Counted from the first letter of the stretch, positions 1,155 through 49,757 are shown. The stretch is 64,000 nucleotides of DNA from Minisyncoccia bacterium (GCA_041742965.1 JBGTNQ010000012.1:1379-65378); one strand, 5' to 3'. Program-made: numbers and translations. Notes: generated from the sequence alone by a model not told the origin.

Positions 1155-1508
1155 TTATTCCTGTTCTTCCAATTTGACAGCGGCTTCAGGAGTAGAGACC
1201 GTCTTGCCCATTAGGAACATTTTGATAATCCCCCAAGCAATGAGCCAGTAAACGAGCATCGCCAGAAGCGTGGTCCATTCAAATATACTGCCTTCTACTC
1301 TAGTTATTCTAAAAACATTTAGAAAAGGGGCGACAAAAATATAAGTTGTGCCGTAGATAAAATCAGTAAAGCCAGCGCCCGGATTTGCACCCAACAACTT
1401 TAGTAGAAAACGAAATGCCAACAATGCTTCAAGGAGGCCGATGACATACCAGACGATTTGAGTACCACGAAAAATCGGTTTCGTGGTTGGAGAATTATAT
1501 GAATCCAT
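1155..1508 (-). CDS. YggT-family small membrane protein
   Basis: 117 aa with the YGGT-like core YGTTYIFVAPFLNVFRI...WTTLLAMLVYWLIAW and two TM helices. Confidence 0.65.
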   Translation of the reverse strand: MDSYNSPTTKPIFRGTQIVWYVIGLLEALLAFRFLLKLLGANPGAGFTDFIYGTTYIFVAPFLNVFRITRVEGSIFEWTTLLAMLVYWLIAWGIIKMFLMGKTVSTPEAAVKLEEQE

Positions 1509-1541
1509 ATTTTTTATACCTAATTATTTAATAAACTAAAT

Positions 1542-1694
1542 TTACTTTAATACATTTTTTCCACTAATAACGTTAACCAAAAAAATGATGACAGCTACAA
1601 CGAGGAGAATGTGAATAAGTCCCCCCAGTGTATAAGATGTCACCAAGCCTAGTGCCCATAAAACCAACAAAACGATTGCAATGGTTGTAAGCAT
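1542..1694 (-). CDS. lmo0937-family micro membrane protein (50 aa), missed by the ORF track
   Basis: Hand translation gives MLTTIAIVLLVLWALGLVTSYTLGGLIHILLVVAVIIFLVNVISGKNVLK. This is a typical lmo0937-type 2-TM micro-protein. A near-paralog lies at 32692..32820. Confidence 0.5.
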   Translation of the reverse strand: MLTTIAIVLLVLWALGLVTSYTLGGLIHILLVVAVIIFLVNVISGKNVLK

Positions 1695-1871
1695 ATTGTT
1701 TAAATATTTTTTAATTTTATAATTTGACCAATCAGCCCTGTAATATAAGACGCGGATGGATAGTTTTTATTTCAATAATCTCCAAATGGCCGTCAGTCCA
1801 ACACTAACGGCCCTTTTTCACATTCAAATTTACCTAGAGACACCCTCAAATATTATCTGGGTATTTCGTAT

Positions 1872-1985
1872 TACCGTGAGCAAAGACTGACAAGCGACAG
1901 GGGCCGTGAGGGGCGAAAAAGAATAGTACCCAACCACACTTCTCCTCACATATCTGCACCTTTTACTGTTGAAGCAGAATCCTTT
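1872..1985. repeat. direct repeat copy A (~110 bp), near-identical to 7028..7140
   Basis: ~100 nt identical (gcaaagactgacaagcgacaggggccgtgaggggcgaaaaagaatagtacccaaccacacttctcctcacatatctgcaccttttactgttgaagcagaa). It spans the last ~12 codons of the membrane-protein gene plus ~70 nt of 3' flank. Confidence 0.85.
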
Positions 1986-2389
1986 TTAAGAGATTTGAAA
2001 ATAATTAAAATTAAAGAAATTAATGTATACAAGATTGTCAGTAAAAAAATAACTGTGCCCTTTGTTATTGGAATAAAGTCCATCCCATGTGTTCTTGTTG
2101 GCAAAAAAGCAATAATTATCAAAGAGATAGGGACCATCCATATGGAAAAATTTCTCCAAGTTGTAAAAGTAGAATCTTTCAACTTATAAGTTATTACTGA
2201 GAAAATAAAAACTGAAATAAAAATGTAAGTAAAGCTTACTATTAAATCGCTGGTATAATAGCATTTACTTGCATAGTTAAAACAAATTCCAATATCTACA
2301 CTAAACATTGAAACCATATTGACTATAAAAAAAAGAAACGAAAAAAGAAACATCCGCTTCTTTGTAAACCACTCACCAACTTTATTCAT
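1946..2389 (-). CDS. polytopic membrane protein, unknown function
   Basis: 147 aa with four hydrophobic helices. The C-terminus KSLKKDSASTVKGADM is encoded inside repeat copy A, and a paralogous 3' fragment exists at 7101..7230. Confidence 0.55.
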   Translation of the reverse strand: MNKVGEWFTKKRMFLFSFLFFIVNMVSMFSVDIGICFNYASKCYYTSDLIVSFTYIFISVFIFSVITYKLKDSTFTTWRNFSIWMVPISLIIIAFLPTRTHGMDFIPITKGTVIFLLTILYTLISLILIIFKSLKKDSASTVKGADM

Positions 2390-2427
2390 AATTTAATTAT
2401 CTAATAATTTATTTTAAATATCAACCA

Positions 2428-5187
2428 CTACTTTAGCCCCACTGTTACAGAATAAACATTTCCATCATCTAGTTTCATAGAGAGTTTATACCAATAACCA
2501 AAAGCTAATCCCTTGGTACTCCAGTTGTAGATATACTGTTGGCTGGTAGTGTCCCATCTAAATTCTGTCCCCGTAGAAGCTTGCGAATTGTATGTAGATT
2601 CATCTATTGATGCACTCATCTTACTTCCCTTTTGTGGTGTAAGCCAAACTGGTGTCGAACTTGCTTGCACTATAACACCATCAAGATTTTTCAATTGAAA
2701 CTTTATAGGTATGGTACTTCCTCCCTTAAAGACACTCCGCGCTTGCTCTGAATGATAGGCCGTATCATTTATGGGTTGCAGGAATCCAGAAAACGCATAG
2801 TACGGTGCAAGAACCACTTCGCCCAATTTTGCATTTAAGTTTATATCACTGATTCCATCTCCATTTTTATCAATTTGAAGCACAGAACTTCCTACTTCAA
2901 ATCCTTCAGATATGTCCATTGTTGCTACTGTGGAAGTGGAAGAAGGTATGCCCTCAAATGAAGTGGAGTCAGTTATTGTATTTCCTTCCTGCTTATCTAC
3001 ATCAAGCGAGAAACTACCTTTTTCAAGACCTTGCATTTTGAGAGTATACGCGACACCAACAGGAACTGAAAGAAATTGCACTTCACCTATTTGTTTATAA
3101 GTAACATTTGGAATTTCTTCTCTAGTTTGCTTAGTTGCTGGATCTTGTCCTGTGTACCTTCCTTGTGTATCAATAATGCCAAGAGTTAGAGGGGAATGTA
3201 GAGTGTAGTGGAGACGTTCCCGGTCTGACACTAAAGTCGAAGTATTATTCACGACAATATTAGTAAGATTAATGAAACCTTCGCCTTTAATTTTAGATTT
3301 AATAAAATCACGAAGGTCCAATACTTCTAAAATATCTTTGTGGTTTGTTCTAAATCGGTCATTTCCGTTATACTGAGCTAAATCCACCCACCACCTCTCC
3401 ACATTTGGATTAGTATCCGACATCCATAAAGCGCTTGGTACGACAACCGTAGCATCACCATCAATTACCATGCGAGGTTTATAAGAAGCATATTCACCTC
3501 CAAGGAATTTCTTTTTCACTACATAATCTAATCCTGCAAGAGTCTCCTCTCCCCAACCCGCTACTTGTATCACTTTAGTATCTGGTGGCGGTACCCAATT
3601 GTCTAATACTTGATGCACTACTTCTGCTTGTAAATATAATTCGCTATTCCCGATGTTTGTACGTACAGTATCTTCATATGTTGGCTTCGTTCTTCCGTCG
3701 GTACCTAAAACATAATTTTTAAGCTCAGTCTCGTTTGAGACAAATACTCCGTATTGTGAAGTTTGTGGATCAAAAAATGGCTTGTTTTCAAAGGATACTA
3801 TCTTGCCTACCGCGAAAGCCGGATCAACTGTATTAAAATACCCCGCAGAAGGTAATAGGTTATACATAACCGGCATATTTTCGGATAACTGCCTAGATCT
3901 TTTTTTGTCCATCAAGAAACCAAATGGGCCGATATTAGTTCCGTGAAGTATGTTTGCCACAGCTTCCGGTGTACCGACTTGTGGCACGCCGACAAAAATT
4001 ATTCTGTCTATTTGATCATAAAGAGGATTGCTTGTATCTTTTAACTTTTGAATTAATGCCTTTGTGACCAATCCTCCGTTTGAGTGCGCAATAATTGTTA
4101 TTTTCCCAGTCCTAGAGCTTGCTTGAAGTTCTTCCAATTTTTTTAGAATAAAAGATTCTGAAAAATCCTGTTCTTCTGTATAAGATAAATTATCTCCAGA
4201 TACTTTGCCGTTGGTAACAATATCTTCTAGTGAAAGTCGCCAGTCGTAGGGTATAAAAGCATAATCATTTATGATTTCTTCCACATCTTTCCATTTTCTT
4301 AAGTCCTCAATGAATGATTGATAAATATTGGGATTGGGTAAAAGAGAGAGGTCAATGTTATCGACGATGCCAGCCTCATTTCCTTCGTCACTCACCCTCT
4401 GTGTATCGTTTTTAGTATGAATGTTATGAATGCTGTCCCCCTGATCATTTAAGCTAAGTAGGGAGTGCCTCGCGTCATTTTTGGAAACCCATAATTCATC
4501 ATCTGTAGAATTATATAACCTAGACCCCATAATCCCCGGCAGGAACATAACACTTGAGCAACACTCTACTAATTCTGTTCTATACCCAATGGCATATAGA
4601 GCTGACTGATTGTTGAAACAACCCGCGGAAGTTTTATCAGGAAACCAAGCGCAAGAAGTGTTTCCTGGAATGGGATCTCGATTTGGAAAACGGAACATAA
4701 TACCCAGATGCGTATCTAATATTTCTGGATCAAAAGTATCCGCCCCATATACGAAAGCATAAGCTGATCCTGATACAAGTAAATAATCTTCAAAAAAGAA
4801 TGAGATATTATTTGGGGCGCCACGATTTAACTCGGCCCAACTAAACGTATTTATGGAACACTGAATTAGAGTGTCGAGACGATCAAGGTTATCCAGGGTG
4901 TATAGACAGAATTGTATCGGTGGAATGTCTGGAAAACCTTCTGGGCCTGAGTTGTCAGCATAGACGACGGCTTCCATTACATTAAAAGTGAAGTCTGATT
5001 CTGGAATAAGTCTCATCCCTTTGTAAGAAAGGACTTTATTGGGGCGATCACCACTAAGATTAGAGAAGGTTACATTTCTAAAGTCGAAAAGATAGGTGGT
5101 GTCTTCAGCTTGAACATTCGTCAGACCAATTAAAAAAAGAAGCGTTAAGATAATGTAGGTCTGAGGAACTTTAGTAAAAAATTTCAT
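2428..5187 (-). CDS. large secreted alpha/beta-hydrolase-fold protein (lipase/esterase-like, GHSNGG nucleophile elbow)
   Basis: 919 aa with the signal peptide MKFFTKVPQTYIILTLLFLIGLTNVQA. The motif IIAHSNGGLVTKALIQKL matches a lipase class-2/PGAP1-like nucleophile elbow. Large multi-domain C-terminal region. Confidence 0.65.
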   Translation of the reverse strand: MKFFTKVPQTYIILTLLFLIGLTNVQAEDTTYLFDFRNVTFSNLSGDRPNKVLSYKGMRLIPESDFTFNVMEAVVYADNSGPEGFPDIPPIQFCLYTLDNLDRLDTLIQCSINTFSWAELNRGAPNNISFFFEDYLLVSGSAYAFVYGADTFDPEILDTHLGIMFRFPNRDPIPGNTSCAWFPDKTSAGCFNNQSALYAIGYRTELVECCSSVMFLPGIMGSRLYNSTDDELWVSKNDARHSLLSLNDQGDSIHNIHTKNDTQRVSDEGNEAGIVDNIDLSLLPNPNIYQSFIEDLRKWKDVEEIINDYAFIPYDWRLSLEDIVTNGKVSGDNLSYTEEQDFSESFILKKLEELQASSRTGKITIIAHSNGGLVTKALIQKLKDTSNPLYDQIDRIIFVGVPQVGTPEAVANILHGTNIGPFGFLMDKKRSRQLSENMPVMYNLLPSAGYFNTVDPAFAVGKIVSFENKPFFDPQTSQYGVFVSNETELKNYVLGTDGRTKPTYEDTVRTNIGNSELYLQAEVVHQVLDNWVPPPDTKVIQVAGWGEETLAGLDYVVKKKFLGGEYASYKPRMVIDGDATVVVPSALWMSDTNPNVERWWVDLAQYNGNDRFRTNHKDILEVLDLRDFIKSKIKGEGFINLTNIVVNNTSTLVSDRERLHYTLHSPLTLGIIDTQGRYTGQDPATKQTREEIPNVTYKQIGEVQFLSVPVGVAYTLKMQGLEKGSFSLDVDKQEGNTITDSTSFEGIPSSTSTVATMDISEGFEVGSSVLQIDKNGDGISDINLNAKLGEVVLAPYYAFSGFLQPINDTAYHSEQARSVFKGGSTIPIKFQLKNLDGVIVQASSTPVWLTPQKGSKMSASIDESTYNSQASTGTEFRWDTTSQQYIYNWSTKGLAFGYWYKLSMKLDDGNVYSVTVGLK

Positions 5188-5352
5188 TATTACGATGTTA
5201 CGTTAATAATGGATAGGATAATGGGGTCAACCACTATTCTTTTTTGGCATACAGAAATGGCGGCTGACCACATTTCCTTAAATCTTATAATAAAAAATAA
5301 CATCTCCCCGTTAATCTGACAACACTAGCTTGTAGATAGGTAAAATCTCTTC

Positions 5353-5631
5353 TTATTGCAGTCTTTTGCAAAACATTAGAATATCCTTTCCGCGAGGAGT
5401 GAGTTTGTGGCGAACACTCGGGCCATCACTCCTCTTCAAGACGAGACCGGCAATTGCCAGTTTTCGCACATGGTCAGAAGCATTCTCGTACCCAATATGC
5501 AAACGCTCGGAAATATCATCCACCGAAAGCTCTGGCTCTCTAAGTAAGAGATCGAGAATTTCAATACGGCGATGGTTTGCAAAGCCTTTCACAATTCGTT
5601 CTGTTTTGCGATAGTTTATTTTTTCCTTCAT
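5353..5631 (-). CDS. ArsR/SmtB-family HTH transcriptional regulator
   Basis: 92 aa; RRIEILDLLL...LSVDDISERLHIGYENASDHVRKLAIAGLV is a wHTH of the ArsR family. Its last 10 codons are encoded by the 30-nt motif at 5357..5387. Confidence 0.8.
   Translation of the reverse strand: MKEKINYRKTERIVKGFANHRRIEILDLLLREPELSVDDISERLHIGYENASDHVRKLAIAGLVLKRSDGPSVRHKLTPRGKDILMFCKRLQ
5357..5387. repeat. 30-nt motif copy 1 (attgcagtcttttgcaaaacattagaata) with TTGCA-N6-TGCAA inverted-repeat core
   Basis: Overlaps the ArsR C-terminal coding sequence and stop codon. Copies at 5667..5697 and 6969..6999. Confidence 0.8.
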
Positions 5632-5666
5632 ATTTTTACATTTTTACAATTCTATTTTTATGATAT

Positions 5667-5697
5667 CAGACTATTGCAGTCTTTTGCAAAATACTAG
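5667..5697. repeat. 30-nt motif copy 2
   Basis: Sits 36-66 nt upstream of the ArsR start and overlaps the metK stop codon. 2-3 mismatches to the other copies. Confidence 0.8.
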
Positions 5698-6626
5698 AAT
5701 GAAGAATGTTGGCTGAAATGACCCCAGTTAGAGGTGTCTTTGAACTTAACTTCATCCAATTTTAAATACTCCCGTATCCCACTTGGGCTAAGGTCATAAT
5801 CATTAATTTCTCTTTCTACCCCATCAATAATAGCCACGGCCATAACCGGCTTACTTTTGCCTATAGCATAAGCAAGTTTTGTATAGACTTCTTTTGCATT
5901 ATGTTTATTCAATAAATCAACAGCAATTCTCCGAGCCATATATGCGCCACTTCTATCTACTTTTGTATAATCTTTTCCAGAAAAAGAACCTCCACCAATT
6001 GGTATTTCGGGGCCATAATTATCTATTACCAGTTTCCTACCTGAAAGTCCTGTATCACTATCAAATCCGCCCAAGGACCATTCGCCAGATGGGTTGATAA
6101 GATACTCATCTGCTGAAATATTACTTTTTACAAGACCGAGCAATTCACTACTTTTTGTATTTTGAAAACTTGCGACGACCGTCGTCACTTTCCCAGCCTT
6201 TATGGTAACTTGAGTTTTGCCATCATAGGGATATATGGCAAATATTTTTTTACACAAGTCTCTAGCCAGAACATATTCAAGCGGTAAGTACTCTTTCGTT
6301 TCATTCGTAGCATAACCTTTCATTATTCCCTGATCTCCAGCGCCACCACTGTCTACTCCTTGCTTTATTGTAGTGCTTTGTAAAGCTATGCTTTTTATAA
6401 CCTTATAATTTTCACCCACAATACCATGCACAATATTTTCAATATTTGGTTTTGATTTTGAAGTCACCTCACCATTTATTGTTATCAAATTATGCCCACC
6501 CATTACTTCTATCGCCACACGACTTTCTTTGTCCCCTTCTAAATATGCGTCGAGTATACTGTCTGCAATAAAATCACAGATTTTATCTGGATGCATTGGG
6601 CTCACGAATTCACATGTTTTTTCCAT
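5694..6626 (-). CDS. metK: S-adenosylmethionine synthetase, short form
   Basis: Motifs HPDKICDFIADSILDA, GAGDQG and GGGSFSGKD are present. The 310-aa short MetK is typical of reduced genomes. Confidence 0.85.
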   Translation of the reverse strand: MEKTCEFVSPMHPDKICDFIADSILDAYLEGDKESRVAIEVMGGHNLITINGEVTSKSKPNIENIVHGIVGENYKVIKSIALQSTTIKQGVDSGGAGDQGIMKGYATNETKEYLPLEYVLARDLCKKIFAIYPYDGKTQVTIKAGKVTTVVASFQNTKSSELLGLVKSNISADEYLINPSGEWSLGGFDSDTGLSGRKLVIDNYGPEIPIGGGSFSGKDYTKVDRSGAYMARRIAVDLLNKHNAKEVYTKLAYAIGKSKPVMAVAIIDGVEREINDYDLSPSGIREYLKLDEVKFKDTSNWGHFSQHSSF

Positions 6627-6845
6627 AAAAACTAAAAATTCCTCTAATAAGAGGAAAGATTTTTTCTGCGTGGACTAGACGCAAGACATATCTTTCCTTC
6701 CGCCTAGGGCGGATGGTTGGATTTAGCACCTCAGCAAAATTGCTTTTTGATAGGTTGCTGTGGGGTCCACGAGCCAAATCTCGCTCTCCGTCCGTAGTTA
6801 CTACGAAGGAGGATACCTCCACTCTTGATCGAACTATTCAATTGT
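6627..6845 (-). promoter_or_regulatory. candidate SAM-I/IV-like riboswitch in the metK 5' leader, with an SD-sequestering expression platform
   Basis: The minus-strand RNA contains AUCAAGAGUGGAGG, GCAACC, GGUGCUAAAUCC and AAAGAUAUG blocks in S-box order. The 3' P1 strand GGAAAGAU is complementary to AUCUUUCC, which in turn pairs with the SD GAGGAA 10 nt upstream of the ATG. Confidence 0.4.
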
Positions 6846-6856
6846 CGAACACTGGC

Positions 6857-6866
6857 ATTATATCAC
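6857..6866 (-). promoter_or_regulatory. extended -10 promoter (TGaTATAAT) for the metK leader
   Basis: Minus strand reads tgtgaTATAATgccagtg, ~10 nt upstream of the riboswitch 5' block. Confidence 0.4.
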
Positions 6867-6968
6867 ATTTCCAACCATCAATCCGAAATGTCCGGTCGCG
6901 GTAGGTGAAATCGGACAAGACCCGCCTCCGCCAGTTGGCGGAGGCGGGCGGGTAAAGTCACACTTTTC

Positions 6969-6999
6969 TTATTGCAGTCTTTTGCAAAACACTAGAATA
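6969..6999. repeat. 30-nt motif copy 3
   Basis: Lies upstream of the metK promoter and just after the GC hairpin cccgcctccgcc-agtt-ggcggaggcggg (6921-6948). Shares a 36-nt run with copy 1. Confidence 0.8.
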
Positions 7000-7027
7000 A
7001 AGAACGGGGGTTGTCGGGAAGTTGTAT

Positions 7028-7140
7028 GACCGTAGCAAAGACTGACAAGCGACAGGGGCCGTGAGGGGCGAAAAAGAATAGTACCCAACCACACTTCTCC
7101 TCACATATCTGCACCTTTTACTGTTGAAGCAGAAACTTTT
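7028..7140. repeat. direct repeat copy B (~110 bp)
   Basis: See copy A. Identity decays into divergent coding sequence past ~7140. Confidence 0.85.
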
Positions 7141-7230
7141 TTAAGAGATTTATGGATGATAAAAATAAGAGAGAAAATAGCATAGGCAATTAAAATTCCT
7201 ATAGCAATCAGATCTTTTTGTATATGAAAA
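7101..7230 (-). pseudogene. 3' fragment of a paralog of the 1946..2389 membrane-protein gene (no start codon)
   Basis: Encodes ...IQKDLIAIGILIAYAIFSLIFIIHKSLKKVSASTVKGADM*. The upstream reading frame runs through a terminator hairpin and has no in-frame ATG after it. Confidence 0.45.
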
Positions 7231-7280
7231 AATCCGTCTCCTGCATACCCACGCCCTCGTTTTGGAGGCGGGGTGGAATT

Positions 7281-7322
7281 ATTTTTAAAAAAGAAATCGC
7301 GCAGTGCTTTTGGCACTGCGCG
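7281..7322 (-). terminator. Rho-independent terminator
   Basis: Perfect 10-bp GC stem cgcgcagtgc/gcactgcgcg, 5-nt loop, then atttcttttttaaaaa on the minus strand, directly after the small ORF's stop. Confidence 0.7.
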
Positions 7323-7354
7323 AAGACCTCGAGTCCGACATGAATTCGGAAAGA

Positions 7355-7567
7355 CTACCACGGCATCTTGATCTTGCCGATCTGGGTCTCTCCACCCAGA
7401 ACGGTACCGTCTCCGGAGATGCGAGTCTTGTCGACTCCACCGGGAATGCCCCGCATGAAGTCAAAGTGACCCCCACCGTGAGACGGATTGTTCAGGTCGT
7501 TGTGGATCTTGCTGTTCGGATCCGAAAACGGAAACGACCCGCCAAGATTTGGGATCTTGCCATCCAT
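7355..7567 (-). CDS. small Gly-rich hypothetical protein (~70 aa) in a GC-rich islet
   Basis: SD GGAGGTGA sits 5 nt upstream of the ATG. Product MDGKIPNLGGSFPFSDPNSKIHNDLNNPSHGGGHFDFMRGIPGGVDKTRISGDGTVLGGETQIGKIKMPW. Local GC is clearly above the flanks and a strong terminator follows. No recognisable family. Confidence 0.45.
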   Translation of the reverse strand: MDGKIPNLGGSFPFSDPNSKIHNDLNNPSHGGGHFDFMRGIPGGVDKTRISGDGTVLGGETQIGKIKMPW

Positions 7568-7729
7568 TTTTCTCACCTCCTTTCCTGTGTAAAAATGTAG
7601 AACTGCTCTATTTAAAGATTAGCCAAAAGTAGTCTTGAGGTCAAGTACCCTCCTAAAAAAATCCAATATAATGAACAGCCCATCACCAGACGACCTTTAG
7701 GGGCTTGTTTATTAGTGTAAAATAGAGTT

Positions 7730-8647: not shown

Positions 8648-9655
8648 TTATATATTAAATAGTGGGTTAATAATTCCGAGTCCCGCTAGTCCTGCAAGGA
8701 GTGCGAAGAGGCCCAAGCCAATCACGACAATACCCGCGGATTTGAAAAATAAAGAAGCGTGTTTCCCTTGCGCGAATGATGCAGAGCCAAATGAGAGAAG
8801 TAGAAGCATTGGCAATGTCCCAAGGGCGAATGCAAACATAATAAGTAGCCCTGACACAAAAGAACCACTTCCCAATGCTGACACCTGCATTGATTGGGTG
8901 AAACCACACGGCAAGAAAAAGGTAGCGAAGCCGAGAATAAGTGGAGTAAAGGCCTTGTGCTCAATTCTTCTGAAAAAATTGAAAATTCCTGACGGCAGTG
9001 CAATTTTGTTCTTTGCAAAAATTCCGATTAAATTTAAACCGAGAAGTAACATCACGACAGATGCCAGAATCCCCAATATGGCCGTAAAGGTGAAATTAAT
9101 GCCGATCATGCTACCTACCGCCCCAAGAACACCGCCCAACACTGCGAAGCTAACCAACCTTCCTGTATGAAAAAGTAAAAAAGTCCTTGTATCACTCACA
9201 TTGTCTTGCGATATTTTTGCCGACAGCGACAAAACCAACCCTCCTACAATAGCAAGACAGGTTGATACCGAAGCGATGAGACCGATAATAAAACTTGTTA
9301 CCGGTGTTATCTGCCCCCCAATTCCGAAATTTAAGATTCCTGATTTCTGCAAGAGAAAAAACAGAGCAATAAATGTAAGCCCGATTGGTATAGCTTTCCA
9401 AATAACACCTTCGTCTTGATCTTCTTTGATTGATTTTTCAACTGACAATACATAGCCATTTGATTGGATTTTGCTTGAAAGGATTTTTGCCAACTCCTCA
9501 GGGCTTTGTTCACTATCTGTTTCTATTTTTACGGTTTCATTCTTTAAATCGACATGGGTGTTTTTTATAAAACTTTGTTCGTTAAGGGTGTCTTCAATAA
9601 GAATTTTGCATGAAGCACAATGGGTTCCGGAAACATGGAATGTGTATGTTTTCAT
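8648..9655 (-). CDS. HMA-domain (GTHCASC) fused to a DsbD_2/CcdA-like polytopic membrane protein
   Basis: N-terminal MKTYTFHVSGTHCASCKILIED is an HMA fold with the CxxC motif. Downstream are TM helices with the conserved Cys motifs STCLAIVGG and LPCGFTQS. Confidence 0.6.
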   Translation of the reverse strand: MKTYTFHVSGTHCASCKILIEDTLNEQSFIKNTHVDLKNETVKIETDSEQSPEELAKILSSKIQSNGYVLSVEKSIKEDQDEGVIWKAIPIGLTFIALFFLLQKSGILNFGIGGQITPVTSFIIGLIASVSTCLAIVGGLVLSLSAKISQDNVSDTRTFLLFHTGRLVSFAVLGGVLGAVGSMIGINFTFTAILGILASVVMLLLGLNLIGIFAKNKIALPSGIFNFFRRIEHKAFTPLILGFATFFLPCGFTQSMQVSALGSGSFVSGLLIMFAFALGTLPMLLLLSFGSASFAQGKHASLFFKSAGIVVIGLGLFALLAGLAGLGIINPLFNI

Positions 9656-10960: not shown

Positions 10961-13254
10961 TATAATTTTTTAGCCTTAATGCGAAGTGAATTCGATACCA
11001 CTGACACAGAGGACATCGCCATGGCAAAACCGGCAAAGACCGGGTTCAAGAGCCAACCAAATAGTGGATAAAATACACCCGCAGCAAGTGGAATACCTAC
11101 AATATTATAGATGAATGCCCAAAAAAGATTTTGTCTGATTCCTCGCATGGTGATCTTGGACAGCTTGATTGCTTTAACAAGTTTTGAAATATCTCCTCCA
11201 AGAAGAGTAATCCCCGCCGACTCAATCGCCACATCTGTACCAGTGCCCATAGCAATTCCCACATCAGCTTGAGCAAGTGCTGGAGCATCGTTTACACCGT
11301 CGCCGGCCATCGCAACTACGCGACCCTGTGACTGAAGCTCTTTTATCTTTTCAAGCTTATCCTGTGGCAAAACATGAGCCACAACATCATCGATACCCAC
11401 AAGAGATCCGATATGTCTTGCCGTCTTCTCGTCGTCTCCAGTGAGCATTACTACTTTGATGCCAAGTGCGTGAAGCTTCTTAATCGCCTCTGCTGACTCT
11501 GGCTTAATTTCATCTGCCACCATCACAAAGCCGAGCACTTTTTCTTTTGTTGCGAGAATGACAGGTGTCTTTCCTTGAGAAGTAAATTCATTGAGCTTAA
11601 GTGCATCAAACGAAATCTGGAGATCGCTGATGAGCTTTGCGTTGCCAACAAAGTATTCAACACCTTTGACTTTCCCTTTGAGACCCTTACCTTGTATCCC
11701 TTCGAAGTCTGTAATGTCAGATACAGAAATGTTTTTTTCTTCTGCATAGTTTACGATTGCATGCGCGATTGGGTGCTCAGATTTCTTTTCGAGCGAAGCG
11801 AGTATTGAAATGAGATCATCGTCACTTAATGTCGAAAAATTTTGTATATCAACGAGCGTTGGTTTTCCTTTGGTTATTGTCCCTGTCTTATCGACCACCA
11901 CTGTATTTACTTTATGAAGTTTTTCGAGAGTAGCGGCGTCCTTAATGAGAATACCTTCTTTTGCACCCTTGCCTACCCCTACAATGATTGCCGTGGGTGT
12001 GGCGAGTCCGAGAGCACACGGACAAGCGATCACAAGAATGCCGACAAATGAGACGAGGCCAAAAGACAAGGCTTGAGAGAATTCTAGATATTGTGAACCT
12101 ATAATGAGCCACGCACCTAGAGTAAGAAAAGCGAGCAAAAGAACTAGGGGCACAAAGACTGCGGATATTTTATCCACCAATGCCTGAATGGGCGCTTTGC
12201 TACCTTGCGCATCTTCAACCATTTTTATAATTTGAGCGAGGAGTGTTTCTCCGCCAACTTTTGTAGCTTTAAATGTAAAAGAACCGCTTGTGTTTATTGT
12301 CCCAGACACAACACTGTCTCCGATCTTTTTCTGTGCTGGCATTGGCTCTCCTGTAACCATTGATTCATCTACAAACGAACTTCCCTCTGTTATCACGCCG
12401 TCCACCGGAATCTTTGACCCTGGTTTAATAATAATCAAATCCCCATGCTTTACGTCATTTACTGAAACTTCTACTTCTTTTCCATCACGAATAACTAAAG
12501 CTGTTTTCGCTTGGAGATTGAGAAGTTTCTCAATGGCATCACCTGTTTTTATTTTTGATCGAGCTTCAAGATACTTACCAAGTGCAATAAAGGTAATAAC
12601 CACAATTGTCACATCATAGTATTGATACTCAACATTTATAAACGGGCGGAGCACATCCTCAAATGCACTGACTGCAAAACTGTATGAAAAGGCAGTAAGG
12701 GTACCAATACCAATAAGCGTATCCATGTTTGCCTTGCCGTATCGAAGAAATCTGTAAAAACCAAGTAGGTACGGCTTACCAACAACAAATAAAATGTATG
12801 TAGCGAGTATGGGCAGAAGATGGTGAAAAAATTCTTCAAGCGTTGAGCTCATCATCGGGACAATGCTGTACTTAGACAAAATCTCCCAAACCATAACCAA
12901 GCCCGATAAAATGGCAATGGGAATAGCCGAGATTACTTTAATCCGCATATCGGCTACTTCAGCCAGTTTCTCTTTCTTTGACTGATTGAGTCCTAAATGA
13001 GCCGAGTGCTCACTAGGAGACATGCCCATCTCTTCGGCTGTAGCAGGAATATCCAACGAATACCCAAGAGGTTCAATATGTTTTGATAAGTCATACGGAT
13101 TTGTTTTTGAAGGATCGAATGAAACTTTGGCCTTTTCTGTACCGTAATTGGCTTCTACAGAATGCACACCTTCAACCTTCTTTAGTGTCTTTTCAATAAC
13201 TGCAGAACATGAGGCACAATGCATTCCTTTTATGTTGTAGGTCTGTGTGTGCAT
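10960..13254 (-). CDS. copA: copper-translocating P1B-type ATPase
   Basis: N-terminal HMA (GMHCASC), the CPC motif ACPCALGLATP, DKTGTIT and GDGVNDAPAL; 764 aa. Confidence 0.9.
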   Translation of the reverse strand: MHTQTYNIKGMHCASCSAVIEKTLKKVEGVHSVEANYGTEKAKVSFDPSKTNPYDLSKHIEPLGYSLDIPATAEEMGMSPSEHSAHLGLNQSKKEKLAEVADMRIKVISAIPIAILSGLVMVWEILSKYSIVPMMSSTLEEFFHHLLPILATYILFVVGKPYLLGFYRFLRYGKANMDTLIGIGTLTAFSYSFAVSAFEDVLRPFINVEYQYYDVTIVVITFIALGKYLEARSKIKTGDAIEKLLNLQAKTALVIRDGKEVEVSVNDVKHGDLIIIKPGSKIPVDGVITEGSSFVDESMVTGEPMPAQKKIGDSVVSGTINTSGSFTFKATKVGGETLLAQIIKMVEDAQGSKAPIQALVDKISAVFVPLVLLLAFLTLGAWLIIGSQYLEFSQALSFGLVSFVGILVIACPCALGLATPTAIIVGVGKGAKEGILIKDAATLEKLHKVNTVVVDKTGTITKGKPTLVDIQNFSTLSDDDLISILASLEKKSEHPIAHAIVNYAEEKNISVSDITDFEGIQGKGLKGKVKGVEYFVGNAKLISDLQISFDALKLNEFTSQGKTPVILATKEKVLGFVMVADEIKPESAEAIKKLHALGIKVVMLTGDDEKTARHIGSLVGIDDVVAHVLPQDKLEKIKELQSQGRVVAMAGDGVNDAPALAQADVGIAMGTGTDVAIESAGITLLGGDISKLVKAIKLSKITMRGIRQNLFWAFIYNIVGIPLAAGVFYPLFGWLLNPVFAGFAMAMSSVSVVSNSLRIKAKKL

Positions 13255-13960: not shown

Positions 13961-14112
13961 CCGTGAGTACACTATCGGTCACAAGTTCTGGCTTACTATC
14001 CAGACTCGCGACCCCGTCTCGTCCGCCCAAGGCGGACTGCGACTTTCGATTCCAATCTCGGCTAGAAATGATGCTTCGCGCAGACTGCATTTAGCAGTCT
14101 TTGCGAATCATT
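13961..14112 (-). repeat. tRNA-3'-end-associated element E6 (152 nt), flanked by 15-nt direct repeats of the tRNA-Gln 3' end
   Basis: gctgccggacttgga occurs at 14113-14127 (tRNA T-arm/acceptor) and again at 13946-13960. The element carries agtccgccttgggcggacgagacggggtcgcgag and ends ...aacttgtgacc next to the distal repeat. Confidence 0.6.
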
Positions 14113-16157: not shown

Positions 16158-16789
16158 CGTGCCCTCCTGGGGCTGAATGATTTGACTGAATATGTTACAG
16201 AGCTTTCTTGCCGGACACTACCATTTTAAATGTAAAAAGTCAAGAATATTTATAGCTAGTTAAGGTAGAGGTCTCAGACCTCTAGAAAACCCATAAATGA
16301 GGCTCTTTCATAAAGCCTCCCGCAAATATTACAACATTTCAATGCGGTCACTCGCGAGCGACAAGTTTAAAATTTTTTAAATTAAAATAGGCAAACGAAA
16401 AGGCGGCTGCTATTGAGAGCAAACCGCCTCTCTCATTTTTGATTGGTCCTGCGGGAGGGAGACTACTCGAAACTTCGGTAAAAGTCGCGCAGAGGAACGT
16501 TCCTACCACACCCAGTCAATGGATTGATCTGGTGTGGCGATTGGAAACCGTGATGGTTGGCCGTGCTGTGTGGGTGAACGGAATCAGCTTCGACAATCGG
16601 ATCAGTTTGATCCCCACTGCCGATCAATCCAGACTCGACCATCATTTCGGTGAGTCCATCACACTGAGCATCGCTTAACATCTAGACACCATACCTTCCT
16701 TGTTACGGGTAAAAATAATACTACGGGGGAACTACTTCTATTTTGATATTACAAATATGGAGAAGAAAGTCAACATCATAGTAAGTTTA

Positions 16790-24834: not shown

Positions 24835-27027
24835 TTGACCCTAATGGCAAAAGGTAATGGAAAAAAACTTCTGATTGTCGAGTCGCCGGCGAAAGCAAAA
24901 ACAATCTCAAAATATCTAGACGGCGAATATGAAGTAGTCGCTTCTATTGGGCATGTTCGTGATTTACCTAAAACAAATAAAAAGGCAATAGATATTGAGG
25001 GAGGCTTCATTCCACACTATGAAATATCTAAAGGTAAAGAAAAAGTAATAAGTGAAATAAGAAAATTAGCAGGAGGAGCAGAAGATGTCATCCTGGCCAC
25101 AGACCCCGACCGTGAAGGAGAGGCTATAGCTTGGCATATTAGTGAGGCTGTGGGCCTTAAAAATCCAAAGAGGGTAGTCTTCCACGAAATCACCAAAGAG
25201 GCGGTAACAGAGGCAATAAAGCATCCACGGGATATTGATTTAAACCTTAAGATTGCCCAAGAGGCGCGCCGAGTACTGGACCGACTAGTTGGATACGACC
25301 TATCTGGACTTATTTGGAAAAAGGTCAGATACGGCCTTTCTGCTGGCCGTGTCCAATCTCCTGCACTCCGCATCATCATGGAGCGAGAGAGAGAAATCCG
25401 AGCTTTTAAACCTGAAACATTCTGGACAATATCCGCTGACTTTACCACAGAGAAAAATCTAATGATCACCTTGATCTGTGATGAAGAACCTAGAGAAGAA
25501 AAGGGAGTTATAAATATTTTAGACACAGCCAAAAAAGAACCTTGGTCAATTATTGATATAAAAGAGACAACAGTAAAAAGATCTCCTCGACCCCCCTTCA
25601 TCACTTCAACACTTCAACAAACAGCCAGTTCTAGATTAGGGTTTTCTCCTTCACGGACAATGGGTGTGGCACAAAAGCTTTATGAAGCTGGACTCATTAC
25701 ATATATGCGTACCGACAGCACCAACTTAGGGTCTCAGGCCAAAAAACAGATTGAGGAAGTAATAAAAAACAAGTTTGGAAAACAATACTACGAACCACAC
25801 TCTTATAGTAAGAAAAGTAAAAATGCTCAAGAAGCTCATGAAGCAATAAGACCCACAGACTTCGGGAAAGAAACTGGTGGTATAAATGAAGAACAGAAAA
25901 AACTCTATAATCTCATCTGGGCCAGAACAGTTGCCTCTCAGATGGTCTCCGCCGATACTCTTCGTACAAAAATAAGTGCCAATGTTAAAAGTGCTTCAAT
26001 ACCTAATTTTTCTATAACTGGATCCCGTGTCATATTTGATGGGTGGCTCATCGCTGATCCAAGGGCACGACAAGAGGATGTGGAGCTCCCAAAATTATTG
26101 AAAGGCGAAAATATCATACTCAAAGATATAAAAAGTGAAGAAAAGGAGACTACCCCACCCGCCAGATATTCAGAAGCTGGACTCGTAAAAGAACTTGAAA
26201 AAAGAGGCATAGGTAGACCTTCAACATACGCCTCAATAATAAAAACTATTATAGATAGAGGCTATGTACTAAAAGAACAGCGTGCGCTCGTACCGACGGA
26301 CACAGGGGATGTGGTGAGTTCTTTTCTCGAAGGAAATTTCGGAGACTATATAAGCGACACCTTTACCGCAGAGATGGAGAACAAGCTTGATGATATTGCT
26401 ATTGGTAAAAGAGAGTATGTAAAGACACTTTCTGATTTTTACAAACCATTTTTGAAAGATATAAAATCTAAAGATAAGTTGGAGAAACTAACAAATATGG
26501 GCGTGGCTGATGCAAAGTGGAAGTGTCCAAAATGCGGAAGTGGAATGATTATTAAGCTCGGAAAAAATGGCCGTTTCTTATCTTGTGATAAATTCCCTGA
26601 CTGCACAGGAGCACGAACTATAGATGGTGAAGAGATAATGGGGCCCAAAGATACGGGAGAACTTTGCCCAGAATGTGGTAAGGCTAACTTAGTAGAGCGC
26701 GACGGCCGATTTGGAAGATTTATAGCATGTGGCAGATACCCAAAATGTAAATTTGTAAAAGAAGACCCAGAAGCCAGAAAAAAACTACTAACAGGTGTTA
26801 AGTGCCCTGTATGTAAGGACGGAGAAATGATGGAAAGAAGGGGACGATTTGGTATTTTCTATTCCTGTAGTAACTATCCCAGTTGTAAAAATGCAATAAA
26901 AGCTAAGCCAACAGGAAACATGTGCCCTATGTGCAATTCCCTCATGATGGATGGCACGAAAACTATACCAGAACGCTGTAGTAACAAGAGCTGTGCAAAC
27001 CACAACCCGCATAAACTAATGAAGTAG
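24835..27027 (+). CDS. topA: DNA topoisomerase I with C-terminal zinc ribbons
   Basis: TOPRIM motifs LLIVESPAKAKTI and DPDREGEAIAWH, the catalytic region, and four C4 zinc ribbons. Confidence 0.9.
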   Translation: MTLMAKGNGKKLLIVESPAKAKTISKYLDGEYEVVASIGHVRDLPKTNKKAIDIEGGFIPHYEISKGKEKVISEIRKLAGGAEDVILATDPDREGEAIAWHISEAVGLKNPKRVVFHEITKEAVTEAIKHPRDIDLNLKIAQEARRVLDRLVGYDLSGLIWKKVRYGLSAGRVQSPALRIIMEREREIRAFKPETFWTISADFTTEKNLMITLICDEEPREEKGVINILDTAKKEPWSIIDIKETTVKRSPRPPFITSTLQQTASSRLGFSPSRTMGVAQKLYEAGLITYMRTDSTNLGSQAKKQIEEVIKNKFGKQYYEPHSYSKKSKNAQEAHEAIRPTDFGKETGGINEEQKKLYNLIWARTVASQMVSADTLRTKISANVKSASIPNFSITGSRVIFDGWLIADPRARQEDVELPKLLKGENIILKDIKSEEKETTPPARYSEAGLVKELEKRGIGRPSTYASIIKTIIDRGYVLKEQRALVPTDTGDVVSSFLEGNFGDYISDTFTAEMENKLDDIAIGKREYVKTLSDFYKPFLKDIKSKDKLEKLTNMGVADAKWKCPKCGSGMIIKLGKNGRFLSCDKFPDCTGARTIDGEEIMGPKDTGELCPECGKANLVERDGRFGRFIACGRYPKCKFVKEDPEARKKLLTGVKCPVCKDGEMMERRGRFGIFYSCSNYPSCKNAIKAKPTGNMCPMCNSLMMDGTKTIPERCSNKSCANHNPHKLMK

Positions 27028-27031
27028 ATTT

Positions 27032-27158
27032 GGAAGTGCGCAGTCTTCACTGCATACGCGCAAGTTTTCGTGAGACGGAGGCATATTTTTTCAGCAGAAA
27101 AAATGCCGAGTCGGGGTCGCAGAACCCCGCCCCTGACGAGGGGCGGGGTATTTGTGAC
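27032..27158 (+). repeat. element E1 (~127 nt) inserted at the topA 3' end, flanked by 75-nt direct repeats (26957..27031 and 27159..27233)
   Basis: The repeat cgaaaactatacc...gaagtagattt, which includes the topA stop codon, occurs twice. The insert carries ttttttcagcagaaaaaa and ccgagtcggggtcgcag and ends atttgtgacc. Confidence 0.65.
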
Positions 27159-27233
27159 CGAAAACTATACCAGAACGCTGTAGTAACAAGAGCTGTGCAA
27201 ACCACAACCCGCATAAACTAATGAAGTAGATTT

Positions 27234-30420: not shown

Positions 30421-30548
30421 GATTCACGAAAACAGCCGGGGGCTGTTTGAGTGATTTATCAATGCGAGGTGGATGAGGAATCGAAAGCCGGAGGCAGACG
30501 TGCCGAGGCGGGGTCGAGAGATTTTTCAGCAGAAAAATACTCGTGACC
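30421..30548 (+). repeat. element E2 (128 nt) between 21-nt direct repeats of the tRNA-Trp 3' end (30400..30420 and 30549..30569)
   Basis: gattccttcatcgcccgcaat, running from the T-loop to the discriminator plus 4 nt, is duplicated. The insert carries ggaatcgaaag, ccgaggcggggtcgagag and atttttcagcagaaaaa and ends tactcgtgacc. Confidence 0.65.
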
Positions 30549-35953: not shown

Positions 35954-36120
35954 AGGTATTGAAAATCTCAGTGTTTATACTGAGCGGACTAAGCGAGTCG
36001 GAGTATCGCCGGGAAGGATTCGGTCAGGAGTTTTCGTCTACTGACAAAACTCACAACCCTGCCTCCCTCGCCTTCGCTCGGTCCGGCTTTCTCGTCTCTA
36101 CCCGGACAGCACCGACTTGC

Positions 36121-36153
36121 AAAAAAGCTGAGTCCTCATGACTCAGCTTTTTT
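36121..36153. terminator. bidirectional terminator hairpin
   Basis: aaaaagctgagtc-ctca-tgactcagcttttttt. Confidence 0.65.
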
Positions 36154-43727: not shown

Positions 43728-43870
43728 CTTTTACTTTGATGAGGACGGAAGTATGCAAATTTATTTGCATACTTAGGGAATCGAAAGGCGCAGTGATATT
43801 TTGTGAGTTCACAAAATTACGAGCCGTGGTCACGACCGAGCCGAGCGACGGCGAGGTGAGAGTTGTGACC
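43728..43870 (+). repeat. element E3 (~143 nt) between 27-nt direct repeats of the tRNA-Cys 3' end (43701..43727 and 43871..43897)
   Basis: gattcccgtccacgcctcaagtaaaag is duplicated. The insert carries gggaatcgaaagg, ttttgtgagttcacaaaa and gtggtcacgacc and ends gagttgtgacc. Confidence 0.65.
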
Positions 43871-44034: not shown

Positions 44035-44107
44035 GCGCCCATAGCTCAGTTGGTAGAGCTGCTCCCTCTTAAGGAGAAGGTCGTAGGTTCAAATCCTACT
44101 GGGCGCA
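44035..44107 (+). tRNA. tRNA-Lys (anticodon CTT)
   Basis: Acceptor GCGCCCA/TGGGCGC, D-arm TAGCTCAGTTGGTAGAGC, anticodon loop CTCTTAA, T-arm GTAGGTTCAAATCCTAC. Confidence 0.8.
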
Positions 44108-44379
44108 CAGAAGCTACAGCAACCTGCCCTGCGGCAGGTTTTGTGCTTCTGTGCGGACCGGAGCCATGTTTTGTGACCACACAAAACAGACGAGGTGGGG
44201 TCGAGAAATTTTGTGAGCGACGGCGAACAAAATATTCGTGACCACAAAGGACGCAATTGGCATGATCAAGATTTTTCCGTCAGGAAAAATACTTGTGACC
44301 ACAATCCTGTGCGAACCATACTTCCCCTCTCACAAACAATACTTGTGACCCGAGTTAAATATGATAAAGTATTTCTCAT
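44108..44379 (+). repeat. E4: tandem array of four short units, each ending in ...GTGACC, with AT-stem hairpins, between tRNA-Lys and tRNA-Leu
   Basis: GTGACC at 44173, 44238, 44295 and 44345, each followed by acacaaaa / acaaagg / acaatcc (tRNA-trailer-like). Internal cgaggtggggtcgag, ttttgtgaccacacaaaa and atttttccgtcaggaaaaat. Confidence 0.6.
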
Positions 44380-44461
44380 GCTGGGGTGGCGGAATTGGTA
44401 TACGCGCTAGTCTTAGGAACTAGTGGAGAAATCCATAGGAGTTCAAGTCTCCTCCCCAGCA
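44380..44461 (+). tRNA. tRNA-Leu (anticodon TAG)
   Basis: Acceptor GCTGGGG/CCCCAGC, anticodon stem CTAGT/ACTAG with loop CTTAGGA, long variable arm, T-arm GGAGTTCAAGTCTCC. Confidence 0.8.
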
Positions 44462-44466
44462 CAAAC

Positions 44467-44595
44467 GAAAGTAGTGAGTTTGTGCTCTAGGCGCATTTTT
44501 TGCTTTGCAAAAAGAGCAGAGACTTGAAGGCCGGAGTCCGCCTTGGGCGGACGAGGCGGGGTCGCGGACTTTTTCAGCAGAAAAAGATCTGTGAC
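44467..44595 (+). repeat. element E5 (129 nt) between 22-nt direct repeats of the tRNA-Leu(TAG) 3' end (44445..44466 and 44596..44617)
   Basis: aagtctcctccccagcacaaac is duplicated. The insert carries ggagtccgccttgggcggacgaggcggggtcgcggac and ctttttcagcagaaaaag and ends atctgtgacc. Confidence 0.65.
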
Positions 44596-44666
44596 CAAGT
44601 CTCCTCCCCAGCACAAACTCACTACTTTCGTTTGTGCTGTATAAAATTTGACTTTTTGCTTGTTTT

Positions 44667-47778: not shown

Positions 47779-48159
47779 TTAATTAGTCTGAAGATTTCCA
47801 ACACCTGGCGTAGTGCCTAAATTCTGACTTTGCTGAATACCCAAAGCATTACCAACAAAGCTAACAAGACCCCATACAGAAACCATCACAAACAAAGTTA
47901 CAACTCCCCATATCATCATGTTTTTACCTTTTGCTGCATCTACTTCATCTCCAGCTGCAAGGACAAACTTAGCCAATCCCCAGAAAAAGAAGAGAAGAGC
48001 CAAAGCTACTACTAGTGGCAACAAAAGATCAACAATCCTCCCAATAGACCTGAAAAATGTCTCAATATTTGTCAGCTGTGGACCAGCAGTACCAGCCATA
48101 GTTAACAAAGGAAGAGCGAAAACTGCTAAACTACCTATAAATTTCCTTATCATATTCAA
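47779..48159 (-). CDS. small two-TM membrane protein, paralog 2 (signal peptide + VirB2-like core)
   Basis: LLLPLVVALALLFFFWGLAKFVLAAGDEVDAAKGKNMMIWGVVTLFVMVSVWGLVSFV. Confidence 0.5.
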   Translation of the reverse strand: MNMIRKFIGSLAVFALPLLTMAGTAGPQLTNIETFFRSIGRIVDLLLPLVVALALLFFFWGLAKFVLAAGDEVDAAKGKNMMIWGVVTLFVMVSVWGLVSFVGNALGIQQSQNLGTTPGVGNLQTN

Positions 48160-48256
48160 TAAATTAATATTAAAACCTATAAATTTCTTTCTAATATACC
48201 TACTAATAGTATCACGAAAAAATCGAAAAGACAGGCATATGTGGAAAACAAAAAAA

Positions 48257-48550
48257 TCAATTATTAACCTTTGGGTTTAATTGAGAGGGAGCATTACCTC
48301 CAATGAGGAAAATAACATCTTCTTGTATAAACCTTACAATTCCCCAAATAGACACCATAACGAATAAAACAACAATCCCCCACACCATCTTATTTTTTCC
48401 CTCTTGCTTCTTCTTCACATCATCACTCTCTTTTATAAATATAGCCAAACTCCAAAAGAAAAAGAGTAGAGCCACAGCCACAGAAAGTGGGAGTAGTAAA
48501 TTCACCAAGCTTCCAAATGCCGATATTAAATCTTGAATATTTGAAATCAT
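48257..48550 (-). CDS. small two-TM membrane protein, paralog 3
   Basis: LLLPLSVAVALLFFFWSLAIFIKESDDVKKKQEGKNKMVWGIVVLFVMVSIWGIVRFI. Confidence 0.5.
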   Translation of the reverse strand: MISNIQDLISAFGSLVNLLLPLSVAVALLFFFWSLAIFIKESDDVKKKQEGKNKMVWGIVVLFVMVSIWGIVRFIQEDVIFLIGGNAPSQLNPKVNN

Positions 48551-48933
48551 GGACTTGTTGTAGGAAATTGAGGAATAGTACTAATAGGTTGACCAAACAG
48601 GTCACCAGTAATGAGATTTATTATTCCTATAAACGAAACCATTACAAACAAAGCCAAAATACCCCATTTCATAAGACTCTTCCCCTCTTCAATAACCTTC
48701 TCATCCCCAGAGCCCCTGATAACTTTCGCCAAACCCCAGAAAAATACTAGGAGAGTGGCTCCAACAATCACAGGTAGAAGACTATTAATAAAACTTGTAA
48801 ATAAGCAGAGAGTTTCTGCAAAGGTGGTTGGTGGTAATGGCACATTAGCCGGACAGGCAGCAAAAACAGGCACTGGTAGAAATACCGAGAAAGAAAGAAT
48901 TAGAATTAAAAATAGAGAAGAGAAACGAATCAT
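48547..48933 (-). CDS. small two-TM membrane protein, paralog 4 (signal peptide)
   Basis: LLPVIVGATLLVFFWGLAKVIRGSGDEKVIEEGKSLMKWGILALFVMVSFIGIINLI. Shares a 4-nt overlap with its neighbour. Confidence 0.5.
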   Translation of the reverse strand: MIRFSSLFLILILSFSVFLPVPVFAACPANVPLPPTTFAETLCLFTSFINSLLPVIVGATLLVFFWGLAKVIRGSGDEKVIEEGKSLMKWGILALFVMVSFIGIINLITGDLFGQPISTIPQFPTTSP

Positions 48934-49367: not shown

Positions 49368-49757
49368 TTATTCAAGAATCGAATAACCATCATCAAGCAA
49401 AGCTGATAAAATCAAATCCACAATGAGCCAAGCAGCGAGCATAAATATAAGCCCCTTTGCCACCTTTACAAAAACATCCTTTCCTCTGTCTCTCTGACCT
49501 TGGTTACCTCCAGCGGTCATAATGAGAAAACCCGCCCAAGCGAAAGAAAGAGCTGCAAGCGGTATAGCTATTAAAATTAGAAAATTGATAAAATTCTGAG
49601 CAAGTTCTATGAGTTTGTTGTATGAACATGGACCAAGGGCAGAACCTGGGGCATCATCACAAACGATTAGATTTTCCCCAGCCATAACCCCAACAGTACC
49701 TGGTAGCGGAGTGGCCAATAAACAAAGCATTATAAAACTAAATAATATTTTTTTCAT
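49368..49757 (-). CDS. small two-TM membrane protein, paralog 6 (signal peptide)
   Basis: LILIAIPLAALSFAWAGFLIMTAGGNQGQRDRGKDVFVKVAKGLIFMLAAWLIVDLI. Confidence 0.5.
   Translation of the reverse strand: MKKILFSFIMLCLLATPLPGTVGVMAGENLIVCDDAPGSALGPCSYNKLIELAQNFINFLILIAIPLAALSFAWAGFLIMTAGGNQGQRDRGKDVFVKVAKGLIFMLAAWLIVDLILSALLDDGYSILE

Follow-up and report, generated by a model that had tools for sequence, protein, structure and literature searches.

We analysed a stretch of DNA of 64,000 nucleotides (nt) from a Minisyncoccia bacterium (GCA_041742965.1 JBGTNQ010000012.1:1379-65378; 'the window' below is this whole stretch), in which two direct copies of a repeat, here called R, bracket a 5.16-kb block containing the S-adenosylmethionine (SAM) synthetase gene metK. 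On balance, we lean towards explaining R as the product of non-allelic recombination that took place recently between two old paralogous membrane-protein genes at their 3' ends, either as a conversion tract or through a single-crossover insertion or duplication. The bracketed region is best read as an ordinary kind of rearrangement in an unusual organism, and not as a new kind of element.

The longest exact match between the two copies of R measures 101 nt. When the diverged edges are included, the alignment extends to 150 nt at 92% identity, with 11 mismatches and one gap. All 12 differences are located at the edges, within 38 nt of the coding-side end or 11 nt of the opposite end, and they are mixed in type (T/C, A/T, G/A and one gap) and not adenine-specific. 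All genes of the region are on the minus strand, and on this strand each copy of R comprises the final 10-23 codons of an open reading frame (ORF) and 67 nt past its stop codon (1946-1948 in copy A, 7101-7103 in copy B). A 43-nt core of R has two exact matches in the window and none in 100 shuffled sequences, and self-BLAST of all 64 kb returned no third copy. The first-pass annotation, made from sequence alone, had placed direct repeats of about 110 bp at 1872-1985 and 7028-7140, with a perfectly conserved 70-nt 3' flank. The repeat is real, with about 100 identical nt and an identical non-coding flank, but its limits differ slightly and the flank is 67 nt long. The repeat copies and the genes that they join are as follows:

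1868-2017, no strand: repeat copy A (R-A), exact core 1879-1979; it takes in the final 23 codons of the intact membrane-protein gene and the 67-nt 3' flank (both read on the minus strand)
7024-7172, no strand: repeat copy B (R-B), exact core 7034-7134, joined to the paralogue fragment
1946-2389, minus strand: intact gene for a multi-pass membrane protein, type-1 paralogue, 147 aa, without a Pfam family, with a C-terminal 10-residue extension from R
7101-7245, minus strand: what is left of a type-2 membrane-protein paralogue, some 37 C-terminal codons lacking a start codon and a promoter

Comparison with related proteins locates the native end of the membrane-protein gene. We found eight homologues with 37-66% identity, the nearest at 66%. 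In all eight (P0002-P0009), the C-terminus reads ...KSLKK (of the type K(S/T)LKKE followed by a stop) and continues for at most three residues. Both paralogues of one related locus, L059, stop at KKE or within two residues of it, and at the DNA level the three homologous genes compared close with ...AAG AAA GAG TAA or its equivalent. The two window copies, intact gene and fragment alike, share ...AAA TCT CTT AAA AA(G/A) G(A/T)T and then continue into 10 identical codons (SASTVKGADM and the stop) and 67 identical non-coding bases. The identical segment of R starts at the native stop position of the family; it is therefore a 3' flank fused to both genes, not a conserved gene end. Judging from these gene ends, the 10-residue tail of the membrane protein is supplied by the rearrangement and is not a family feature. 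The earlier statement that R covers the last codons of a membrane-protein gene thus holds for the ORFs, since codons of both lie in R, but not for the native gene end, as shown by the eight homologues and the second paralogue.

The distal ORF, joined to R-B, spans 7101-7361, but resemblance to the membrane-protein family is limited to its final 37 or so codons; going upstream past about 7245, the ORF enters the terminator hairpin of a neighbouring gene (7297-7323). Next to the identical tract, 16 of 35 residues are shared between the fragment and the intact gene of the window (about 45% at the protein level). The 35-residue core of the fragment scores 81 against the 146-aa second paralogue of L059 and 65 against the intact gene of the window, and is therefore derived from an old paralogue, not from a recent copy. 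By these alignments, fragment and intact gene are anciently diverged paralogues of different types. The proposal of a gene fragment without a start codon is confirmed, while that of a truncated paralogue at the far end needs amending: the fragment is present, but it is a remnant of the second-paralogue type (best match, the 146-aa protein of L059) and not a piece of the same gene. Because a flank identical at 101 of 101 positions adjoins paralogous coding DNA with only about 45% identity, the two flank copies most probably share a recent origin.

We suggest that the conserved ...KSLKK-coding ends may have served as homology for non-allelic homologous recombination. Either a short gene-conversion tract would have been copied from one paralogue end onto the other, or the 5.16-kb block would have been inserted or duplicated by a single crossover (Campbell-type). 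The type-2 paralogue would already have been truncated by a G+C-rich ORF and its terminators, and the outcome would be a perfect 101-nt core within older homology, together with a decayed type-2 paralogue. We infer both the mechanism and the recency of this event from features expected of a conversion tract: old homologous flanks (16/35 residues), a sharp-edged tract identical at 101/101 positions and the location of all differences outside the core.

Several observations weigh against this explanation. No close relative displays the state before the event, the nearest membrane homologue being 66% identical, and the flank in R lies downstream of no homologue. The two mismatches directly at the coding-side edge (AAG GAT vs AAA GTT) are not predicted by a simple crossover at KSLKK microhomology. 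Past the core on the non-coding side, the copies stay similar for only about 12 nt, leaving little flanking homology to start a conversion. Finally, the window contains other duplicated gene 3' ends with an insert (topA and several tRNA genes), which hint at a dedicated process rather than chance recombination. Our confidence in a recombination scar is moderate, since the pre-event state is beyond reconstruction and no source of the flank was found.

The gene content proposed between the repeats (a membrane protein, a lipase-like hydrolase, an ArsR regulator and metK) is borne out by domain assignments. Besides the membrane-protein gene, the block and its distal border contain the following features:

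2428-5187, minus strand: LCAT-like alpha/beta hydrolase, secreted, 919 aa, with a Pfam domain; the gene pair with the membrane gene is kept in relatives
5353-5631, minus strand: ArsR/HTH_5-type winged-helix regulator, 92 aa, with a Pfam domain
5694-6626, minus strand: metK, S-adenosylmethionine synthetase, short (310 aa) and clade-typical, by Pfam domain and relatives
6639-6834, minus strand: metK leader, with a SAM-I riboswitch aptamer (6685-6834) and a terminator-like hairpin (6639-6656)
5350-5383 and 5672-5706: copies 1 and 2, in direct orientation, of a motif of about 35 nt, TTATTGCAGTCTTTTGCAAAAYAYTAGAAT
6963-7004, no strand: copy 3 of the motif TTATTGCAGTCTTTTGCAAAAYAYTAGAAT, 30 nt from R-B, with the palindrome TTGCA-N6-TGCAA
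6921-6950, no strand: perfect G+C-rich hairpin between R-B and the metK promoter region
7297-7323, minus strand: strong intrinsic terminator of the 73-aa ORF, marking the cut-off point of the paralogue fragment
7355-7576, minus strand: G+C-rich 73-aa ORF, outside all Pfam families and unmatched by any identical sequence in the protein collection

Along the gene strand, the order is the 73-aa ORF and its terminator, the fragment, R-B, the 35-nt motif, the hairpin at 6921-6950, the SAM-I leader, metK, the motif, the ArsR gene, the hydrolase gene, the membrane-protein gene and R-A. The G+C content of the block (0.26-0.43) is not distinct from that of its flanks, and the interval is ordinary chromosomal DNA. 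The SAM-I aptamer scores 31.7 bits, under the Rfam gathering score of 44.4, because of a 47-nt insertion in P2. The metK leaders of relatives contain a canonical SAM-I riboswitch (44.9-55.3 bits), and their proximal part is conserved at the DNA level. Since this usual leader of the clade is present, metK in the window is a normal, riboswitch-controlled copy. Beyond the far repeat, at 7240-7580, a patch of about 50% G+C within a region of about 39% G+C comprises the 73-aa ORF followed by two perfect G+C-rich hairpins; this patch adjoins the type-2 membrane paralogue and apparently cut it short.

The motif TTATTGCAGTCTTTTGCAAAAYAYTAGAAT occurs in three direct copies confined to this region. On the gene strand, one is upstream of the metK leader, one lies 40 nt before the ArsR start, overlapping a predicted -35 box, and one is at the ArsR stop, upstream of the hydrolase gene, with the final ArsR codons forming this copy. 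Its placement makes the motif a plausible candidate operator of the adjacent ArsR-type regulator. We rejected the notion that the copies are gene remnants: all three read ILxFCKRLQ and a stop in the ArsR frame, which follows from their sequence identity alone.

The window derives from the chromosome of a Paceibacteria-like bacterium of the candidate phyla radiation (CPR). The best MetK matches (70-78% identity) are from metagenome-assembled genomes mostly titled Paceibacterota, Nomurabacteria, Parcubacteria or Candidatus Saccharibacteria, and the remaining genes of the window encode core functions (topA, gyrA, ftsA/ftsZ, IF-2, ClpB, aminoacyl-tRNA synthetases and tRNAs). Four small paralogous genes with a T4SS_pilin domain (PF18895) are also found, at 47779-49757 on the minus strand, beside a solute-binding protein gene. 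Each of ten local proteins checked in a collection of about 15 billion sequences was either a singleton cluster at 90% identity or absent, and no close relative is therefore at hand; exact-protein look-ups of the membrane protein and MetK of the window led to no other contigs.

More distant relatives retain parts of the block. The hydrolase and membrane-protein genes form a conserved operon in L059 (NCBI) and in L060-L069 (JGI and ENA), and in L059 the pair is followed by a tandem second membrane paralogue. Directly downstream of this second paralogue, L059 has tandem repeats of about 28 nt (AGTTCGCAAGGACCGTCCTTGCTACATT) at 6683-6790. A kinship of R with these repeats was discarded, their local alignment being no better than chance (71 of 200 shuffles score as high). 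The combination of ArsR, hydrolase and membrane-protein genes beside metK occurs at none of 58 metK loci of other genomes, and at L019 alone among these loci does an LCAT-like gene lie nearby, 2 kb upstream of metK. The proposed synteny comparison, which asked whether metK is at a different locus in relatives, thus found metK elsewhere and without those neighbours, but in distant relatives only, and it has little bearing on a recent event. One related Paceibacterota locus (L012) encodes two diverged metK paralogues (3415-4344 and 11231-12160) with 79% nucleotide identity and 7.8 kb apart; a conserved leader precedes each, and a SAM-I match above the Rfam gathering score is found only ahead of the second. 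LOOT RNA (RF03000) matches above the gathering score in L016 (15069-15192) and L006 (5974-6097), with none in the window.

The inserts at the other duplicated gene ends belong to a family of structured G+C-rich elements of about 95-165 nt (roughly 130 nt), found directly after topA and six of the eight tRNA genes of the window (Gln, Trp, Tyr, Cys, Lys and Leu-tag). The copies recognized are:

13977-14106 (minus), 30424-30548 (plus), 36022-36141 (minus), 43737-43870 (plus), 44105-44243 (plus) and 44457-44596 (plus): tRNA-flank elements of the window
27022-27159, plus strand: topA-flank element of the window
8890-9014 (minus), 11626-11717, 11784-11879, 16437-16599 and 18263-18356 of L010: tRNA-flank family copies
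1245-1381 of L019, 20272-20402 of L016 and 6083-6201 of L020: family copies in other loci

The family shares the conserved blocks GGAATCGAAAG, CG.AG...CGAG.CGGGGTCGCG and TGTGAC^C, its elements ending in ...T(G/C)TGAC^C (^ marks the junction). At topA, the 75 nt of the 3' end (26957-27031) are repeated exactly at 27159-27233, 202 nt downstream, and the 127-nt G+C-rich insert is a family member. The duplicate, made up of the 23 final codons with their stop and 4 further nt, adjoins the stop codon of a convergent parB-like gene. Most copies of the family precede a duplicate of the 3' end of the upstream gene. At the Trp, Cys, Leu(tag) and Tyr genes, the element is directly followed by a second copy of the tRNA 3' end that begins in the T-loop at position 56; the tRNA-Gln duplicate is broken by a 13-nt insertion, and the tRNA-Lys case is not clear-cut. 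Overall, the target duplications in the tRNA and topA cases measure 22 to 75 nt. In their upstream part, the Trp, Cys, Leu(tag) and topA elements contain the complement of the initial 8 nt of the duplicate that comes next; in Gln, Tyr and Lys, this complementary segment is shorter or degenerate. This segment varies with the target: GGAATCG for T-loops, GAGACTTG for tRNA-Leu and AGTTTTCG for topA.

A covariance model built from five elements identified further copies after tRNA genes in other Paceibacteria (L010, L019 and L020) and one in L016. The predicted helices of the elements are 88.9% paired compared to 34-46% with slid partners, with 23 pairs showing double changes and none of 500 shuffles reaching this level, in an alignment that was itself fitted to the covariance model and is biased in its favour. 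The family has no match in Rfam, its strict three-block pattern was not found in IMG/VR, and a literature search returned no description of such tRNA-flank elements in CPR bacteria. These elements may be guide-bearing or att-type mini insertion elements, or tRNA-trailer RNAs. Two more short units, each with TACTTGTGAC^C at its end, are found downstream of the tRNA-Lys element at 44244-44350, and a degenerate tRNA-Lys 3' end comes after one of the two; this suggests tandem or nested copies of the family. At tRNA-Leu(tag), the terminator hairpin behind the gene (44457-44486) and a second hairpin behind the duplicated 3' end (44610-44639) have identical stems, but the loop of one is the reverse complement of the loop of the other, giving a perfect inverted match of 30 nt. 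Such a loop inversion is typical of template switching in a palindrome.

We consider it unlikely that the metK block was itself inserted by a dedicated mechanism, either site-specific (att-type) or guide-bearing, that is related to these elements and would make R an attL/attR-like target duplication and the 5 kb a payload or captured DNA. The layout is the same, an insert between a first and a second direct repeat (DR1-insert-DR2), with duplications of 22-75 nt elsewhere and, at topA, 75 exact nt around an insert of 127 nt. The sequence preceding R-B, ...GGGGGTTGTCGGGAAGTTGTATGAC^C, resembles the family right end ...GGGGTCGCG...TTGTGAC^C, and an 8-nt complement of R (CAGTCTTT) is located about 55 nt upstream of R-B. 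However, neither the profile hidden Markov model of the family (E<=10) nor its covariance model (with the P2 and P3 helices and conserved junctions; E<=1) matches near 1868-2017 or 6900-7172. Although R-B has both GTATGAC^C and an 8-nt complement, the complement is out of register, pairing with +7 to +14 instead of +1 to +8 as in the family, and it occurs at chance rate. An 8-nt complement is present at 10 of 107 TGAC^C sites against a background of 3.3%, and five complement sites outside the family right ends or an internal family hairpin (R included) compare with 3.6 expected by chance. Because GTAT(T/G)AC precedes both copies of R, it is part of the repeat and not the end of an insert. Furthermore, the genes of the supposed payload are of housekeeping type, a conserved operon among them, and no recombinase was found in the window. 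More specifically, R could be the large-payload product of the very process that places the covarying, three-helix element of about 130 nt after six of eight tRNA genes and topA in the window, and after tRNA genes in other Paceibacteria, which strikes us as distinctly unlikely. In such a process, DNA would enter a gene at its 3' end and 20-150 nt of that end would be duplicated, the gene surviving; the element would contain a stretch complementary to its own flank, and this stretch might serve as a guide. If this were true, the block with metK, the regulator and the hydrolase would represent an as yet undescribed kind of mobile or mobilisable DNA.

The order of the window could also be a choice of the assembler. 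The chromosome would then run from the fragment through R into the flank at 1878, and metK, the ArsR gene, the hydrolase gene, the membrane gene and R would belong to a 5,155-bp circle, to a second strain or to a mixture of integrated and excised forms. Logan contigs (run SRR28170462, k=31) match the window exactly in all unique sequence but break precisely at R with 30-nt overlaps, as is inevitable for k=31 unitigs: L074 ends at 1908, L072 covers 1950-7063 (5,114 nt) and L073 starts at 7105. The resulting two-in, two-out node fits the order of the window and a chromosome lacking the block plus a 5,155-bp circle equally, and L072 with one copy of R would close as such a circle. Nevertheless, we hold this to be very improbable. 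An exact repeat of 101 nt is shorter than usual read lengths and than the largest k-mers of usual metagenome assemblers, and reads could have resolved the deposited 83-kb contig directly. A 5-kb circle that lacks a replication gene and carries the sole metK seen is biologically unlikely, and the gradual divergence at both edges of R is not expected from an assembler join. The chance that selection keeps R identical as a functional element, for instance a small RNA or a 3' untranslated region (UTR) or terminator module convergent with the membrane genes, seems slimmer still. On the plus strand, a promoter-like site (TTTACC-16-TATTAT, 1829-1856) stops just short of copy A, and weak hairpins followed by T-runs are present at the far end of R. 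Yet shuffled sequence folds at least as well as either strand of the two copies (z-scores +0.9 to +1.5), and an Rfam search over 1500-7700 (E<=5) returned only the SAM riboswitch and noise. R was found neither downstream of homologous membrane genes nor elsewhere in 74 fetched loci, and its 22-nt core has no match in IMG/VR and two chance matches in JGI metagenomes, on contigs of 63% G+C with similarity ending at 22-27 nt. Selection alone also fails to explain 101/101 identity beside coding sequence of about 45% identity. R has no demonstrated function of its own, and the suggestion that its conserved 70-mer is a functional RNA (a 3' UTR structure or small RNA) finds no fold signal, Rfam match or conservation elsewhere in its favour. 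A dispersed or mobile repeat was likewise dismissed, with no third copy in the window, none in the 74 loci or IMG/VR, and chance matches in JGI.

If R is a recombination scar, as we favour, its consequences are a 10-residue tail on a membrane protein and a substrate for RecA able to delete or amplify the block. As the first-pass annotation had anticipated, homologous recombination between the repeats could in principle remove the metK block: the perfect 101-nt repeat would offer a route to deletion, amplification or circularisation of a 5-kb unit that includes the only metK seen in the window. A reduced CPR genome would thus still undergo paralogue-driven rearrangement, which is relevant to genome curation and to the measurement of strain variation. 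R alone is of little weight; the tRNA/topA-flank element family is of greater value.

Comparison with known systems places R among ordinary products of recombination. A Pfam scan across the 64-kb window, covering those ORFs of 120 aa or more that were considered real genes, found no integrase, resolvase, transposase, reverse transcriptase or relaxase, and no inverted repeats were found at the ends of R or of the block. The view of the block as a mobile or inserted cassette does not stand: beside the lack of a recombinase in the window, the hydrolase-membrane pair is a conserved chromosomal operon and metK has its usual SAM-I riboswitch. An integrase island was excluded for want of a tyrosine or serine recombinase gene. 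An integron cassette with attC was excluded since R has no internal dyad symmetry or significant fold and no intI was found in the window. An insertion sequence, composite transposon or miniature inverted-repeat transposable element does not fit a repeat 101-150 nt long without inverted repeats at its ends or those of the block, and no transposase was found. CPR bacteria are rich in diversity-generating retroelements, and the template and variable repeats of these systems resemble R in length (about 100-150 nt) and in having one copy at the 3' end of a protein gene. Unlike them, R is mostly non-coding, no reverse transcriptase domain is present in the window, and the 12 differences are mixed and confined to the edges, with none in the 101-nt core, so this candidate too was rejected.

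The attL/attR sites of islands at gene 3' ends (tRNA, tmRNA or protein gene, including integrase-less islands of the cis-mobilizable element (CIME) type) share with R long direct repeats that hold the 3' end of a gene, with an intact gene at one end and a displaced 3' piece at the other. R does cover a gene 3' end with the gene intact, but the intact gene lies inside the bracketed block and not outside, no integrase is found in or near the block, and its composition is not distinct. For a presence/absence comparison, the nearest relatives are at 66-78% protein identity. Amplifiable or translocatable units differ in that the copies of R are not insertion sequences; they are similar as multi-gene units between direct repeats of the same orientation, and the block could circularise as a 5,155-bp product. 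Finally, compared to non-allelic recombination and gene-conversion tracts between paralogues, the tract in R is almost wholly outside the native coding region, replaces both stop codons and has a pseudogene stub as one partner, and its donor, recipient and direction are not assignable. Like them, R is a short perfect tract inside older, diverged paralogous sequence, and its copies are direct repeats able to delete or amplify the interval between them.

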